Shown here piece by piece: positions 8,906-60,990 of a stretch of 64,000 bases of DNA. The stretch is taken from the IMG/VR virus record IMGVR_UViG_3300028534_000015, positions 64,003 to 128,002 of that record; one strand, given 5' to 3'. The notes below the pieces were generated by a model. It was not told where the DNA came from. It saw only the letters and a program-made list of their open reading frames with translations, and did not search any database. Every line of letters starts with the position of its first letter. Position 1 is the stretch's first letter. The DNA comes from a virus. The position numbers and the translations under genes were made by a program.

Positions 8906-10627
8906 TTAATACATCACGCCACCGTAATGGATGTTTCCAACGTTGGCAGTTCTGCCCTCGAAACCTACTTGACCGATACCCATTTTCATGAATGCATTAC
9001 CAGCATGGACAAGTCCATTTCTTTCAACCCAATCAAATGACTGGAATTCGAATTCTGGTGTAATGCCGGATACTTTCATAGACTCAATGAGCGCAGAAAA
9101 TGCTTCTGGGTTCATATAACATCTACGTTTAGATCCTGTGATTGTAGCATCAATCCCAAGTCCGTTCAACACCTTAAGGAAAAGCATGAATGTGTCGTCT
9201 GCCTCACCTGTTAGAATGTCACCTATATCATCAAAGAACGCCATATATTCTTTTGGCTTTTTAGAGATGATATATGCAGGATCTAGGATTTTATCAATAG
9301 ACACACGCTGTCCGTCTTCAAAGAAATATCCTGTAGGCATGACTGTAGTCATGCTAAAGATTTTTCCTTTGAAAATTGATGTAAATGTATTCCCGAACAT
9401 TTCATCAAGGGTTTTAGCAATGAGTCCGTTTGAACCTATGTTACCGTCAGCAGCAGCTACAATAGGTTGATAAGCCGGAATAACATCTGTATTAATAGGT
9501 ACATCTACAGCAACAAGCGCCGGTACATGTGAGTGCATGTGAATAGCAATTTGTTGCGGAGTCATACCTTTTTCTACAGGTCCGTTATAGAATTTAGCCA
9601 TTGTGCCTAATCTTTCAAGGTTTGCTTCCAATGGTTTCATCCAGTTATTGTTTTTTGTTAGAGCCGCTTGAACACCAAGACCTAACATAGTGTAACCCAA
9701 TGTCATTTTAGCAGACTCTACCATTTCTAGCACGATAATTCTACCGTAACATTGTAACGCTTGCATAGGCGCTGCTTGATAACCGTATGTTGTCGTTTGT
9801 GGTTCAAGCTTAATAGGAGCAGACTGAATGTTACCAAAAGATACGACAATAGGGCTATTATTGTCTAGGTATCCGCCTAGTTCAGATCCTTTGGTTTTTT
9901 CCGTTAGTTCTACAGTATATGTAGCTTCGATTGGTCGACCGTTTGTATCTGTTACACCAGACCCAAGGTTGAATAGATCAAGAGCGAACTTCTTACCAAT
10001 CTTCTCGAAACCTTTTGTTACTTCTGGAATGTTAGGTTCGATTTGTTCTCCAGCATCTTTCTTAGCGATTAAGAATGGTACTTCAGCCCACATTCTGGCT
10101 TTAAGTCCGATAACTCTAGGAGTCACTTCAATCGCTTCATCGATTTGTTGTTTGACAACAATCATCTTATTCTTGCTAGGATCAAACTCATATCCGTGCT
10201 TTTTAGCAATCTCACTCGCCAAAATGAGTTGGATATGTTTATAGTCCTTCTCAATAGCAGCATCCACAAGCGAAACATCTTTGTTGTTTCTAACCGCCTC
10301 AAGAATTTGACTACTTGTTACACAGTCTCTCTCACCAACAGGGTAGACAAGTGTTGCATAAATATTGCCGTTTCTTACATGTGACACAGTTGAGAGTCTC
10401 TTGAAAGTATGAACTTTTACAGGAACATTGTTCTTTTCATACAGTTCAGATACTTCTTCTACAAGTTTTCTGATATTCTCTGGCTGATCTGCGCCAGTAT
10501 CGATGTTAATACCTGATTGTGTCAGTGATGCAAAGTTGTCAGCTTTAAAAAACTGATTTCCATTTACTGTTTCTCCGACTGATCCGTTTTTAGATGCGGA
10601 CGCATCATTTCTTTTTTCTAATGCCAT
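8906..10627 (-). CDS. chmA: Chimallin (phage nuclear shell protein; phiKZ gp54/201phi2-1 gp105-like)
   Basis: 573 aa from MALEKRN (AAAGGA RBS); immediately upstream of gp55-like nvRNAP gene as in nucleus-forming phages; own promoter-like motif and terminator; size and flexible termini fit; sequence is divergent. Confidence 0.72.
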   Translation of the reverse strand: MALEKRNDASASKNGSVGETVNGNQFFKADNFASLTQSGINIDTGADQPENIRKLVEEVSELYEKNNVPVKVHTFKRLSTVSHVRNGNIYATLVYPVGERDCVTSSQILEAVRNNKDVSLVDAAIEKDYKHIQLILASEIAKKHGYEFDPSKNKMIVVKQQIDEAIEVTPRVIGLKARMWAEVPFLIAKKDAGEQIEPNIPEVTKGFEKIGKKFALDLFNLGSGVTDTNGRPIEATYTVELTEKTKGSELGGYLDNNSPIVVSFGNIQSAPIKLEPQTTTYGYQAAPMQALQCYGRIIVLEMVESAKMTLGYTMLGLGVQAALTKNNNWMKPLEANLERLGTMAKFYNGPVEKGMTPQQIAIHMHSHVPALVAVDVPINTDVIPAYQPIVAAADGNIGSNGLIAKTLDEMFGNTFTSIFKGKIFSMTTVMPTGYFFEDGQRVSIDKILDPAYIISKKPKEYMAFFDDIGDILTGEADDTFMLFLKVLNGLGIDATITGSKRRCYMNPEAFSALIESMKVSGITPEFEFQSFDWVERNGLVHAGNAFMKMGIGQVGFEGRTANVGNIHYGGVMY

Positions 10628-10692
10628 TAGATGTCCTTTTTTTTTTAAATTTCTCATGAGAACTTTACAAGTTCAATAGTATAATATGTATG
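10628..10692 (-). promoter_or_regulatory. Early-type promoter, leader hairpin and RBS of chmA
   Basis: Minus strand CATATTATA, then GAACT-tgtaa-AGTTC hairpin, ATTTAAAA and AAAGGA. Confidence 0.55.
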
Positions 10693-10792
10693 TAAAAATT
10701 ATTTCACATACACTCTGACGGTAGTCTTCTTTATAGAGCTCACGCTCTAAAGTATTACTACTCAATATATAAAGAAATTTATCATTTTTTTA

Positions 10793-11590
10793 TTAGTATG
10801 TGTTAGGTACTCCCATTTTAGCTATCTTTCTAATTCCGTTTTTATCAGAGAACATCATTATCTTATACATTTCATTTTCAAGCATTTCATAATATTGTTC
10901 TTCTGCAGATTCATAGCTTTCTATTTTAGTCTTTAGCATACCAATGTTATGACCTTGTGAAATGGCTCCTTCATCTAACATTACAATTACTTTATTGTAT
11001 ATTTCCATCTCAACAGCAAGTTTACAGAATTTAAACCATTTTGGTTTAGCGGCAGATGATAATTCAGGTAAGTTTTCATGATACGAAACTTTTACAAGTG
11101 CTGATAAGATATCTATAGTATAATAGTAGTCTCTTATAAAAAATGTATTTTTCCCTAACATGATAACACCGGCGCTAGACTCTACTGAAGCAGATGAAAG
11201 GTTATCCATCATTTTCATAGCTTCAGACTCCATATTTGAGCCTGTATCATATCTTCCAAAGAATTGTGTATTGGAATAAAACATAGTGTTTCTGGTAACT
11301 TGCAATACCTCTAATATAGATTTATGTTGGAGCGCTTCTGACGGTATTCGAATTACTGTTCCAATACCGACGTCTCTTTTAACAACATAATCTTCTTTTA
11401 ATGGTATATATACTTTATCGCCAACAGCATCGCTTATATCTTGGAGTGCTGTTCTTCTTATGATGCCTTCTAAAACACTATCGATAGTTTCAACATTACC
11501 AATAATATCCATGAAAGCAAAATTTAAAACCTCTTTAGGTATTCCTGAACGTTTAATGCGTTCTACCGCATATGTGATTGGGTTTGTCAT
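10793..11590 (-). CDS. Conserved phiKZ-like virion structural protein (putative neck/head completion)
   Basis: N-terminus MTNPITYAVERIKRSGIPKEVLNFAF and C-terminal IESYESAEEQYYEML resemble a conserved jumbo-phage family. Confidence 0.55.
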   Translation of the reverse strand: MTNPITYAVERIKRSGIPKEVLNFAFMDIIGNVETIDSVLEGIIRRTALQDISDAVGDKVYIPLKEDYVVKRDVGIGTVIRIPSEALQHKSILEVLQVTRNTMFYSNTQFFGRYDTGSNMESEAMKMMDNLSSASVESSAGVIMLGKNTFFIRDYYYTIDILSALVKVSYHENLPELSSAAKPKWFKFCKLAVEMEIYNKVIVMLDEGAISQGHNIGMLKTKIESYESAEEQYYEMLENEMYKIMMFSDKNGIRKIAKMGVPNTY

Positions 11591-17933: not shown

Positions 17934-18006
17934 TTTATTCTCCTTTATGATTTTAAATTAATTAGTTCTTATAGAACACCTCAAGCTTAAACTGCTTATA
18001 TAATAT
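17933..18006 (-). repeat. 74-bp promoter/leader/RBS direct repeat, copy 1
   Basis: 72/74 identical to 18693-18766; contains ATATTATA, GTTCT-ata-AGAAC hairpin and AAAGGAG. Confidence 0.9.
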
Positions 18007-18030
18007 ATAAATTAAAAAAAATTAAGAACA

Positions 18031-18058
18031 ACTACGTCGAACTTAAGTTCGACGTAGT
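18031..18058 (-). terminator. Perfect 28-bp palindrome/terminator centred on a stop codon
   Basis: ACTACGTCGAACTTAAGTTCGACGTAGT; T-run downstream on minus strand. Confidence 0.75.
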
Positions 18059-21542: not shown

Positions 21543-21599
21543 ATAGTTTCTCCTTTATGAATTTTAAATCAGTCTTTTAAGACACCTACGTCTAATCTA

Positions 21600-21959
21600 T
21601 TTTATAATATGTTTATAAAGTTAATTCCATATAAACTTTAAATCTTCTATTATATTGAACCTATACAACGAACCGAGGGTTGATTGTTTAAAGACATATA
21701 AAACACATATGTTTTTAACCAGTCAATGAGCTGGCTCTACACTAGCAAGCTAAACTAGCAAAGCTGTGGAAACAATAATACCTTGGGGGTTGGTAGGGTG
21801 AGCGTAGCGAACTATATAGAACTTCTTTCCTTTTTGGGAAAGGGGGAGGGGCGAAGCCCCGTCTGGGGGAAAACCCTTTTTCCTTTCTTATAGAAGCACA
21901 TCAATATTCATATATTCTAAAATAGCCAAAATAACCGTTTTTATAATATATTTATAAAG
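21600..21959. other. Non-coding G-rich hairpin island flanked by 21-bp direct repeats (candidate replication origin or structured RNA)
   Basis: No ORF; repeats 21600-21620 and 21939-21959; hairpins 21680-21726 and 21848-21860 (GGGGC-GAA-GCCCC); clustered G-tracts. Confidence 0.45.
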
Positions 21960-21963
21960 ATAT

Positions 21964-22476
21964 TTACAGATAATATAATGTAAATCTATCATCTAAGTAT
22001 TTTCTACATAATACTATAACATCTTCTTTGTTAAGTTCTCCGCAACCTATTCCTGGTATTGGGAGTCCCACATTATTATATTCTTTTTGATTTGTTAGTT
22101 CAACAAGCTCCTTTAATGATTTCTCTATAAGTTTCATATCTGATTTAGCCATAAAACCTGGTAAAGATGACCTACCTATAAAATGTCCATACTGCGGTAA
22201 AATATCATCTTTTGATTCAGGTGTAAACGTAGAAGGTTTTGTTGGGAATGAAATTATATCAAATCCTTTATATTTCATAATGACATCTACGCAATGTCCG
22301 TTTGTTAATATATAAGAACCTAATTTTAAATCAAAACCCTCACAAAGTTCATTACACGTTTTCGCAATACCTCTACCAACAGTTGCTCTATTTCCTCTTT
22401 TAATAAAACCATTTGTTGTAATACAAATAGCATCCAAATGACTCTCGTTGAATACATTAGCCTTCTTTATTTTCAT
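21964..22476 (-). CDS. Macrodomain (ADP-ribose hydrolase, DarG/TARG1-like) protein
   Basis: DAICITTN, VGRGIAK, IISFPTK and VGLPIPGIGCGEL macrodomain motifs. Confidence 0.85.
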   Translation of the reverse strand: MKIKKANVFNESHLDAICITTNGFIKRGNRATVGRGIAKTCNELCEGFDLKLGSYILTNGHCVDVIMKYKGFDIISFPTKPSTFTPESKDDILPQYGHFIGRSSLPGFMAKSDMKLIEKSLKELVELTNQKEYNNVGLPIPGIGCGELNKEDVIVLCRKYLDDRFTLYYL

Positions 22477-22561
22477 TTTTTTTTATCTCCTTTAATGGTA
22501 GATTAAATTAATTATATATTCATAGGAATATTTCGAAAAAAAAAATAATTAATCTCCTTTC

Positions 22562-22597
22562 GAGAGATACGGAGCATCGTAATGCTCCGTATCTCTC
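22562..22597 (-). terminator. Strong hairpin terminator closing the non-coding unit
   Basis: 16-bp perfect stem GAGAGATACGGAGCAT-cgta-ATGCTCCGTATCTCTC; T10 run at 22536-22545 on minus strand. Confidence 0.8.
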
Positions 22598-22600
22598 TAA

Positions 22601-22990
22601 GTTGTCTTTAGTATTAAGTAGCGCTTGTTTAAGCGCTAAATCAACTCTGTCAGAAGTATTGTCTAGACTTCTGACTACAGTATAGCTGACTACAAGGCGA
22701 TCACTTAAACCTAGCTTTCACATGGTCTATCTCTTTTACCTAATAGAAGAAACAAATAACATGTTCTATGAATAACCTGCATATTTCAGCTCAGTTAAAC
22801 TTTTTACATTTTCATGCTTACTAACGTTATCTATTTCAACGATCAGAGAGATTTCTGTCTGGCGTCACCCTGAAGCACAGTTGTACTTCTTCAGTTCTAG
22901 TCCGGATAGTGCACCGGTGCCTTGTCGATAAGGGATGAGCGGTCCCAAAACACTAGAATTATAAGCCTTATACAATCTTAAAAAGACCCT
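22601..22990 (-). ncRNA. Putative large structured non-coding RNA (~390 nt), family unrecognised
   Basis: No ORF >=60 aa; upstream TATATTATA motif; downstream terminator; paired ends and many helices with minus-strand G-U pairs. Confidence 0.6.
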
Positions 22991-23004
22991 TCACGACTTA
23001 AACT

Positions 23005-23024
23005 CTATTTTTATAATATATAAA
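23005..23024 (-). promoter_or_regulatory. Early-type promoter motif upstream of the putative ncRNA
   Basis: TATATTATAAAAATAGA, matching CATATTATAAAATAGA at ~21596-21611 and the other ATATTAT sites. Confidence 0.55.
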
Positions 23025-23096
23025 TATATTAATTTTTGCGATATAAAAAAATTGACATTACATTTTTTCAATGATTTTTAATATAAAGAGAATTAC

Positions 23097-24815
23097 ATGT
23101 TGATGGAAAATGAATTAAACAAAGAAGTTTATGAAGAAGCATTAAGGTACGTTGATAACTACCAAGCAGAAATTATTGCTAAACGATTGGGCGATAAAAA
23201 TGATGTTAAAGATTTAATCTTTTATGAAAATGCATTTGATAACGAGAAAACATTAAAGGATTTAGACAAAGCAGTAGCTACAATTTTTAAAGTTTTACAA
23301 ATGTCACACCACATTGTATCGTTTACAGATTCTGATTGCGATGGTATTTGTTCTGCTGCTATTACAGAGAACGGTATAAAGGACTATTTAAAACATAACA
23401 ACATAACAACAATCGTTAATAAGAAAGTTTACGGTAATGGAATGAATGACACTATATTTAAAGAGATACTTGAGTTACACAAAAAGAACCCTATTTCATT
23501 ACTTCTTCTTTCAGACCATGGTAGTGCTAATGATGCATATTTTAAAAGACTAAAAGAACACATTCCTAACATAAAGATAGTTGTAACTGATCACCATGAA
23601 ATACCAGAAACAGGTAATTTAAGATATGTAGATGCGTTTGTAAATCCTATGAGAGAAGATGACAGCTTTACAAAACGTAATATATCTGGAGCTACAGTTA
23701 TATATTTAGTTATAAAGGCTCTTATAGACAAATTTAAGGCAGAAAGCATATCTTTAGGTAAAGATGACCAAGGAGATAGTTTAATGGCGTTAGCGGCTAT
23801 TACAGTGCTATCTGACGCGATGTCACTTATTGAACCGAAAAATAGATATATTCTTTCTAAAGGTCTTTCGTATATGAACAACACTGATGAGTTATTATGG
23901 AAGACATTTAAAGATTATACATTCGACGATACTATAACTGAAGAAACAATTTCATTTGGTTTAGCTCCACTAATAAACGCTACAAACAGATTAAATTATC
24001 CTGAAATAGCATTTAGGTTTTTAACAGCAAAAACACCGTTAGAAATTAACATGCATATAAAGCGTATGGTTAGTTTTAACAATGAAAGAAAAGAAATAGA
24101 AGCAGAAGCAACGTTAAAAGGCATTAAAGCCGCGAAAAGATATAAAAAGGACTTCAGTAAGATTATACTACAAGATGGTGACTCTGGAGTAGCTGGTTTG
24201 GTTTCACAGACAGTAGGGGAAACATTTTATAGACCTACAATAACATTTACAAAAGACAAAGATGGTGACTATGTAGGAAGTGGAAGAGGAATTGTTCCGG
24301 GATTACACTTAAAAAATATATTTGACGATATACATAAAAAAGACAATACTATCTTTAAAAAAGGTAAAAGAGGAGGTCATGCTGGAGCGGCTGGATGTTC
24401 TGTAAATAATGATAAATTACTTCCATTTGCGACATACTTTGATGATTTTGTTAAAGAAGTAGTGGAAGAAAAAAATATATCATTAACGCCTGTAAAAAGA
24501 TATGACATAGAAGTGAATGAATATAGCACACTAAAGACATTTTCAGAAGCGTTCGAAAAGTTAAGACCGTTTGGTAGAGAGTTTCAAAAACCATCGTTTT
24601 TATTAAGAACAGTTTTCATAAAGAAATGTTCACCTATAGGTTTTCCTGTATTACATTACGGATTAGATGTTATGTTCAGTAAAGTAAAGATTAAGGCGTT
24701 CTATCCGAAATCAGGTTTTAAGTTTAAGTGTGAGTTAGATAAAGCGATCAGTGTTATAGTAACCACAAAGAGATTTAAAGACACTATAGAATTAACAATA
24801 CTAAATCACGAGTAG
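23097..24815 (+). CDS. recJ: RecJ-like single-stranded DNA exonuclease (DHH/DHHA1)
   Basis: DSDCDG, SDHG, TDHH, SDAM, APLINATNRL, GSGR, GGHAGAAG and LRPFGREF motifs. Confidence 0.92.
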   Translation: MLMENELNKEVYEEALRYVDNYQAEIIAKRLGDKNDVKDLIFYENAFDNEKTLKDLDKAVATIFKVLQMSHHIVSFTDSDCDGICSAAITENGIKDYLKHNNITTIVNKKVYGNGMNDTIFKEILELHKKNPISLLLLSDHGSANDAYFKRLKEHIPNIKIVVTDHHEIPETGNLRYVDAFVNPMREDDSFTKRNISGATVIYLVIKALIDKFKAESISLGKDDQGDSLMALAAITVLSDAMSLIEPKNRYILSKGLSYMNNTDELLWKTFKDYTFDDTITEETISFGLAPLINATNRLNYPEIAFRFLTAKTPLEINMHIKRMVSFNNERKEIEAEATLKGIKAAKRYKKDFSKIILQDGDSGVAGLVSQTVGETFYRPTITFTKDKDGDYVGSGRGIVPGLHLKNIFDDIHKKDNTIFKKGKRGGHAGAAGCSVNNDKLLPFATYFDDFVKEVVEEKNISLTPVKRYDIEVNEYSTLKTFSEAFEKLRPFGREFQKPSFLLRTVFIKKCSPIGFPVLHYGLDVMFSKVKIKAFYPKSGFKFKCELDKAISVIVTTKRFKDTIELTILNHE

Positions 24816-60903: not shown

Positions 60904-60958
60904 TTTTATTTTCCTTATATAGTATTCGTTTTTATAATATATAAACAAATTAACACCG

Positions 60959-60990
60959 ATATCACTGAGACTTAAATGTCTCAGTGATAT
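60959..60990 (-). terminator. Hairpin terminator
   Basis: ATATCACTGAGAC-ttaaat-GTCTCAGTGATAT including the stop codon. Confidence 0.7.

Follow-up and report, generated by a model that had tools for sequence, protein, structure and literature searches.

A candidate untranslated early transcription unit among the variable cargo of a phiKZ-like jumbo phage

The DNA considered here (the window) is a stretch of 64,000 nucleotides (nt), positions 64,003 to 128,002 of IMG/VR record IMGVR_UViG_3300028534_000015, a virus fragment of 156 kb that is about 58% complete and has a GC content of 31.7%. Its genes include those for the beta subunit of a phiKZ-type multisubunit RNA polymerase (25-31% identical to those of cultured phiKZ-like phages), a gp29-type tail sheath and a large terminase. 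The polymerase subunit and the sheath make it plausible that the phage is nucleus-forming. In a search of public runs, the phage sequence was contained in a single DNA run (an epibiont metagenome that is probably the sample of origin) and in no RNA run. A separate 907-nt assembly contig covers positions 22241-23147 of the window with zero differences; it derives from the data of the same run and is not independent support.

Open reading frames (ORFs) cover about 95% of the fragment and leave 4.7% uncovered. There are four gaps of at least 200 nt that lack an ORF of at least 50 aa, at least two of them behind early promoters. The second longest, at 22477-23096 of the window (620 nt), is the subject of this study. 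It has no ORF longer than 36 aa, and the one of that length (22865-22975) begins with TTG and is without a usable ribosome-binding site (RBS). The gap is flanked by a minus-strand ORF of 170 aa, which has no Pfam match and is missing from the corresponding slot in relatives, and by a divergent gene for a RecJ-like ssDNA exonuclease. The plus-strand GC skew over 22600-22999 is negative, like that of minus-strand genes, and flips at RecJ. The features of the locus are collected in Table 1.

Table 1. Features in and around the gene-free gap. Positions are those of the window unless a related locus (L) is named; z, folding z-score.
Feature	Position	Strand	Remarks
Conserved gene-free region	21543-21963	minus	own exact promoter copy at 21939-21950; 45% GC core
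Counterparts of this region	L003:4373-4876; L060:1-424; L086:681-1167
170-aa ORF, downstream neighbour	21964-22476	minus	weak match to PHROG 335 'phosphatase', E 2.7e-9
Run of 10 T	22536-22545	minus	16 nt after the 16-bp hairpin
RBS-like 12-mer without a following start codon	22549-22560	minus	repeat family D1
Perfect 16-bp hairpin with tetraloop, predicted terminator	22562-22597	minus	T-run after a 16-nt spacer
3' part with two perfect hairpins	22598-22704		z -2.19 (minus), -3.94 (plus)
Perfect 8-bp hairpin	22619-22638
Perfect 9-bp hairpin	22649-22675
AT-rich centre with two UGAAAUA copies	22716-22865		ambiguous pairing; z -1.37 (minus), -0.06 (plus)
GC island, 49.5% GC	22862-22962	minus	holds predicted four-way junction, 7-bp closing stem and adjacent hairpin
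GC-rich four-way junction, predicted	22862-22962		z -0.16 (minus; 85 of 200 shuffles as good), -0.24 (plus)
Long-range 7-bp helix	22871-22865 / 22700-22694	minus	two G-U pairs
Hairpin	22894-22870	minus
7-bp stem enclosing short hairpins	22958-22952 / 22901-22895	minus
End pairing	22987-22977 / 22618-22604	minus
5' leader	22973-23008	minus	paralogue of leaders after other early promoters, e.g. at window 18007 and 21611
Early-promoter motif, exact TATATTATAAAA	23009-23020	minus	preceded by an AT/T-rich stretch
RecJ-like ssDNA exonuclease gene, divergent neighbour	23097-24815	plus	anchor for finding relatives
Slot between conserved region and RecJ, window			170-aa ORF and the gene-free unit
Slot between conserved region and RecJ, L003			ORFs of 161 and 149 aa
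Slot between conserved region and RecJ, L060			ORFs of 169 and 96 aa

An initial annotation of this DNA described a minus-strand segment with no ORF, an early promoter and a 16-bp terminator hairpin, all of which are present. The promoter motif is a 12-mer that has 12 matches in the window at no more than one mismatch, against 4.4 ± 2.0 expected, and none of 100 shuffles reaches 12. Across the fragment, the intergenic copies of the motif come after T-runs. Ten other copies are followed by an RBS and an ORF at a distance of 9-89 nt. Two copies are exceptions: the one at 23009-23020 has its next ORF start 532 nt away, with a hairpin between, and the one at 21939-21950 has it 396 nt away. The first 35 nt past the motif at 23009-23020 are similar to the leaders of other early promoters, and contain a small local hairpin that competes with the end-to-end helix proposed for the RNA. 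The shared leader pattern, about 30 nt after the motif, has a TTAA-type start region followed by an AGGTG-like word and by a short hairpin with AAAAGA at its end, and is seen after the promoter copies at window 18007, 21611, 23020, 88952 and 91572 (genome-relative) and genome 23298; a related pattern is visible after promoters of the relative L003. The leader may be an initiation element or an element for stability of the 5' end.

At the other end of the unit, the 16-bp hairpin is one of just four perfect hairpins in the 156-kb fragment with stems of at least 16 bp (91 have stems of at least 9 bp). A scan for consensus terminators made no call on the hairpin and its T-run. Many gene ends in the fragment carry a hairpin of 10-16 bp and a T-run, separated by 0 to about 14 nt and in many cases joined directly to the promoter that follows; the hairpin at 22562-22597 with its spaced T-run resembles these gene-end hairpins. 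Composite junctions of this kind occur at window 18031-18058 with 17996-18007, at 60959-60990 with 60930-60941, and at 22562-22597 with 22536-22545; the T-run at gene ends in many cases also serves as upstream element for the early promoter that comes next. Immediately behind the 16-bp hairpin lies the RBS-like 12-mer, a copy, with one change, of the RBS of the 170-aa gene (22482-22493). Such a vestigial copy fits shuffling of cassettes.

The promoter far from the next ORF with a hairpin in between, the paralogous leader and the design of the predicted terminator are best read as a self-contained unit on the minus strand. The claim of the initial annotation that the segment is its own transcription unit thus holds on the logic of its layout (promoter, leader, about 400 nt, hairpin and T-run); we infer transcription, the RNA ends and any activity of the RNA from sequence.

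As far as can be told from codon statistics and protein searches, the region is non-coding. Frame 0 of the minus strand has 6 stops in 136 codons, where 9.8 are expected; the other two frames have 14 and 17. The codon log-odds of the best frame is 0.08-0.10, compared with 0.37 ± 0.075 for genes and -0.15 for off-frames. Of the dinucleotide shuffles, 29% attain this codon score and 14% attain the stop count. Local codon scores are 0.2-0.3 at 22855-22800 and 22705-22650. The GC contents of the three codon positions in frame 0 (0.43/0.37/0.34, against 0.42/0.31/0.23 for genes) form a weak gradient, which is flat in the GC island (0.46/0.46/0.42). The open pieces of the region have no match in Pfam or PHROGs, the read-through translation, with X at stops, has none among 1.84 billion protein representatives, and tblastn of 1,544 ORFs of relatives against the region returned noise only. 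None of the weak coding trends is significant, and on these data the reading of the region as a decayed gene is neither supported nor rejected.

The initial annotation also proposed a multi-domain structured RNA. All the helices that it listed exist, and the MFE fold contains most of them (Table 1). The fold of the minus strand has a z-score of -5.1 with the terminator and -2.3 to -2.4 without it; without the terminator, the plus strand scores -0.65. Eight of 25 control windows (396 nt, evenly spaced, same genome and strand) score -2.4 or lower, so the value of -2.3 to -2.4 is ordinary for the genome. The proposal is not borne out by these energies, nor by the four-way junction, the z-score of which is close to zero. 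The 3' hairpins fold better on the plus strand and are thus plain palindromes rather than strand-specific structures; the 3' part also holds a 9-nt direct repeat (22671-22679 / 22686-22694). The two T-loops that had been suggested come down to a single shared heptamer, UGAAAUA, with closing stems of 4 bp and 2 bp that are not in the MFE fold. The heptamer, which was picked post hoc, occurs twice against 0.10 expected per 396 nt from its genome frequency, and the number of repeated 7-mers is 4, with 6.6 ± 3.3 in shuffles. What the case mainly shows is that many plausible helices between a promoter and a terminator need not make a unit structurally remarkable.

The GC island at 22862-22962 is in the top 0.07% of 100-nt windows of this AT-rich genome. 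The 40 GC-richest 100-nt windows fall in fourteen 200-nt bins, four of which lie in or beside the four gene-free gaps. The GC island is unexplained.

Perfect hairpins are found in dense arrays elsewhere in the fragment and in a relative. Those at G000:C1:27010-27356, about 37 kb before the start of the window, and at G000:C1:153617-153762 consist of different perfect hairpins; the former has seven stems of 10-16 bp in 350 nt, and the folding energy of a 396-nt window at this place is -175 kcal/mol (z = -17). In the relative L050 (JGI Ga0256843_1002059; RecJ at 9577-11019), a 2-kb ORF-free tandem array at L050:5156-7021 is made of units of about 216-252 nt and contains eight perfect hairpins of 22-25 bp. 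The basal 15 bp of these hairpins are nearly constant, and the apical 6-7 bp vary among copies and are always fully complementary, which amounts to compensatory change among paralogues. Every unit of the array has a promoter-like motif, and none has similarity to the 22477-23096 unit.

In searches for known RNA families the unit matches no Rfam family and, in line with the initial annotation, is neither a tRNA nor a tmRNA. At the gathering score, Rfam gave no match in the whole window. At E <= 10, a search of 1001 nt gave six matches (E 6-8.3), none of them on the RNA body upstream of 22690: four overlap the unit only at its 3' end and terminator hairpin, and the other two lie outside it. A 166-nt search with the 5' domain alone returned nothing. 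At or near the gathering threshold there is no Rfam match to RNase P, T-box, tmRNA, 6S, GOLLD, ROOL, OLE, raiA, HEARO, group I or II introns, or CRISPR-DR; a CRISPR-repeat mimic or tracrRNA-like RNA, also considered as a candidate, thus has no support from the Rfam CRISPR-DR families. ARAGORN detected neither a tRNA nor a tmRNA at default and relaxed thresholds, whether in the window or in the whole 156-kb fragment; at the 80% threshold it made one 92-nt call on the plus strand, which we regard as noise. Prediction of RNA-RNA duplexes with 136 translation-initiation regions gave patchy multi-loop duplexes only, and the top 'target' is not a real start site.

Homologues of the unit were sought at several distances. 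By blastn, the region has no match in 50,697 phage records or 72,556 plasmids. Exact words of 18-25 nt taken from the GC island have no match in IMG/VR, JGI metagenome contigs or GTDB genomes, collections from which the record of the window itself may have been removed. Close relatives of the phage, sought through the RecJ and sheath proteins, were not found; the nearest RecJ among 5.8 billion protein clusters is 41% identical. Alignment of RecJ gathered 13 IMG/VR records and 74 metagenome loci, which were searched with BLAST, with nhmmer and short-word blastn on 39 gene-free gaps, and, over about 2.4 Mb of related phage DNA, with two single-sequence covariance models, built for 22862-22962 and 22598-22704. 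None of these methods detected a homologue of the unit. The promoter stretch is the sole part of the query that matches the 13 related IMG/VR phages, four of which have motif matches. The covariance models returned self matches and noise only from the 13 records and 76 further loci, the best foreign matches lying inside a coding region or at a gene end with its terminator. The new large RNA class put forward in the initial annotation is thus without a homologue in any collection searched, and so there is no class.

This negative result is meaningful because a neighbouring gene-free region, 21543-21963, does find matches in the same material. It is 82% identical over 74 nt to its counterpart in L060 (blastn, E 2.5e-9); it matches in L003, where the similarity is visible by eye, and a related motif is present in L086. 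The conservation extends to relatives with RecJ proteins just 37-41% identical. A short GC hairpin with a TTC loop keeps its pairing in L060 through a G-C to C-G flip. The region remains linked to RecJ while the intervening genes change, and, from this comparison of relatives, has a stronger claim than the unit in the 22477-23096 gap to be a non-coding element under selection. The RecJ homologue of L086 (L086:1168-2388) has an N-terminal extension of about 190 aa that is missing in the RecJ of the window.

The genes between the conserved region and RecJ differ from locus to locus (Table 1). The 161-aa ORF of L003 is unrelated to the 170-aa ORF of the window. The presence of unrelated ORFs in the slots of L003 and L060 indicates that the unit occupies a slot for variable cargo, with a conserved landmark on either side. 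The layout is that of a PeSL-like cassette, with variable cargo, conserved flanks, and an early promoter and a hairpin as bounds.

The reading that we prefer, with a probability of roughly 45%, is that the unit specifies an early RNA of about 430-470 nt, untranslated and particular to the lineage, which this phiKZ-like jumbo phage carries in its variable cargo slot. The early (virion-type) RNA polymerase would recognize the motif at 23009-23020, start a few bases downstream and pass through the leader common to other early units. It would then transcribe about 400 nt without a translatable frame and stop at the 16-bp hairpin and T-run (22562-22536), so that the unit would extend from about 23005 to about 22540. 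Any function is more likely to act through local elements, such as the GC-rich 5' third and the plain hairpins, binding a host or phage factor or an RNA, and less likely to require an elaborate conserved tertiary fold. The genome is compact, with few gaps and little uncovered DNA, which makes it unlikely that as much as 620 nt lies idle. At the same time, the unit has no detectable homologue, although the adjacent region 21543-21963 is conserved in the same relatives, and it may therefore not be under selection.

Against an untranslated RNA, the stability of the fold is ordinary, relatives fill the slot with protein-coding ORFs, and the few stops and the weak GC1>GC2>GC3 gradient of frame 0 fit a decayed gene. 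The unit may accordingly be the relic of an early-gene cassette of promoter, leader, ORF and terminator, the ORF of which has decayed or been disrupted; it might still be transcribed and be functionless. This is the main rival of the preferred reading, though less likely than it. It would account for a leader paralogous to those ahead of real ORFs, for the unrelated protein genes at the same place in L003 and L060, for the local rises in codon score, for the RBS copy after the hairpin, and for the lack of conservation and of an exceptional fold. The coding signals on which it would draw are, however, within the reach of shuffled sequences, the read-through frame has no protein homologue, codon-position GC in the GC island is flat, unlike that of genes, and dead DNA would be expected to be lost where 95% of the genome is coding. 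Translation of one or more very small proteins is a highly improbable explanation: the 36-aa ORF spans the GC island and belongs to the reading frame that has fewest stops, but it lacks a Shine-Dalgarno sequence at a working distance, the sole upstream AGG-type motif being the leader motif of units in which the ORF starts about 60 nt later. In addition, GC3 is not depressed, and no family or homologue was found.

Two other readings assign the region a more elaborate role. A large, intricately folded RNA that founds a new class (a ribozyme, or a tRNA-binding decoy or scaffold with paired T-loops) is improbable. The listed helices do exist, several of their G-U pairs are possible on the minus strand only, the whole region folds better on that strand than on the other, the GC island is reminiscent of structured RNA genes in AT-rich genomes, UGAAAUA occurs more often than expected, and no known family matches. 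Yet typical windows of the genome fold as well, and the four-way junction scores close to zero; the 3' hairpins are palindromes that favour the opposite strand; the heptamer was chosen after the fact, and repeated 7-mers are in total below the shuffle mean; the supposed T-loop hairpins have short stems and are absent from the MFE fold; and neither the covariance models in related phage DNA nor BLAST in the phage and plasmid collections found a homologue. To speak of a new RNA class is premature. An element acting as DNA, namely a replication origin, a protein-binding control region or an insulator between the divergent RecJ and early units, is more doubtful still. The perfect palindromes are strand-symmetric, and the gap adjoins a DNA-metabolism gene and is near another gene-free element proposed as an origin, but it lacks iterons as well as any AT-rich unwinding block other than normal spacers, the cumulative GC skew of the 156-kb fragment has no inflection at the locus, and relatives that have retained both RecJ and the neighbouring element show no conservation of the gap. 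The promoter, leader and terminator, moreover, already explain the layout. There is a small chance that the untranslated RNA is a lineage-restricted functional large RNA, the GC-rich 5' third of which would adopt a specific fold and bind a host factor, for example as RNA-based counter-defence or a decoy housed in an accessory slot. Were this so, jumbo phages of the nucleus-forming type would carry RNA cargo beside protein cargo in variable early regions.

Several known systems bear comparison with an untranslated early unit of this kind. GOLLD, ROOL and other large 'ornate' RNAs are like it in size range, phage association and absence of an ORF; unlike them, the unit is without an Rfam match at E <= 10 on the RNA body, homologues, covariation or a fold above chance. 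The likeness to T-loop RNAs that bind tRNA, such as RNase P RNA and T-box leaders, is limited to the UGAAA-type heptamer, there being no Rfam match, no credible closing stems and no interlocked pair from the predicted folds. The early units of phiKZ-like jumbo phages have AT-rich promoters read by the virion RNA polymerase (PMC8244752, PMC11512511). The present phage shares with them a recurrent AT-rich promoter upstream of early genes, predicted hairpin terminators as bounds and a phiKZ-type polymerase beta subunit, but the unit is without an ORF, and its promoter is assigned by recurrence in the genome and by position rather than by mapped starts.

In phiKZ and 201phi2-1, RNA sequencing has defined small RNAs of <250 nt derived from intergenic regions and 5'-UTRs; one of them is conserved across genera, and their functions are unknown (PMC11512511). 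They are, like the unit described here, ORF-free stretches from start to terminator in the same broad group of phages, whereas the present unit is about 460 nt long, is predicted from its letters and has no match in the phage collection. In layout, the unit resembles the PeSLs of T4-like phages, composite early-promoter/stem-loop motifs that flank variable genes (PMC2839356, PMC4122927). There, as here, an early promoter and a stem-loop bound a slot of differing content, with fused junctions of terminator, T-run and promoter; the phage lineage is different, the cargo here is non-coding, and recombination at the motifs is something that we infer. Should the unit make a working RNA, genes for RNAs would share the variable early cargo slots with genes for proteins.
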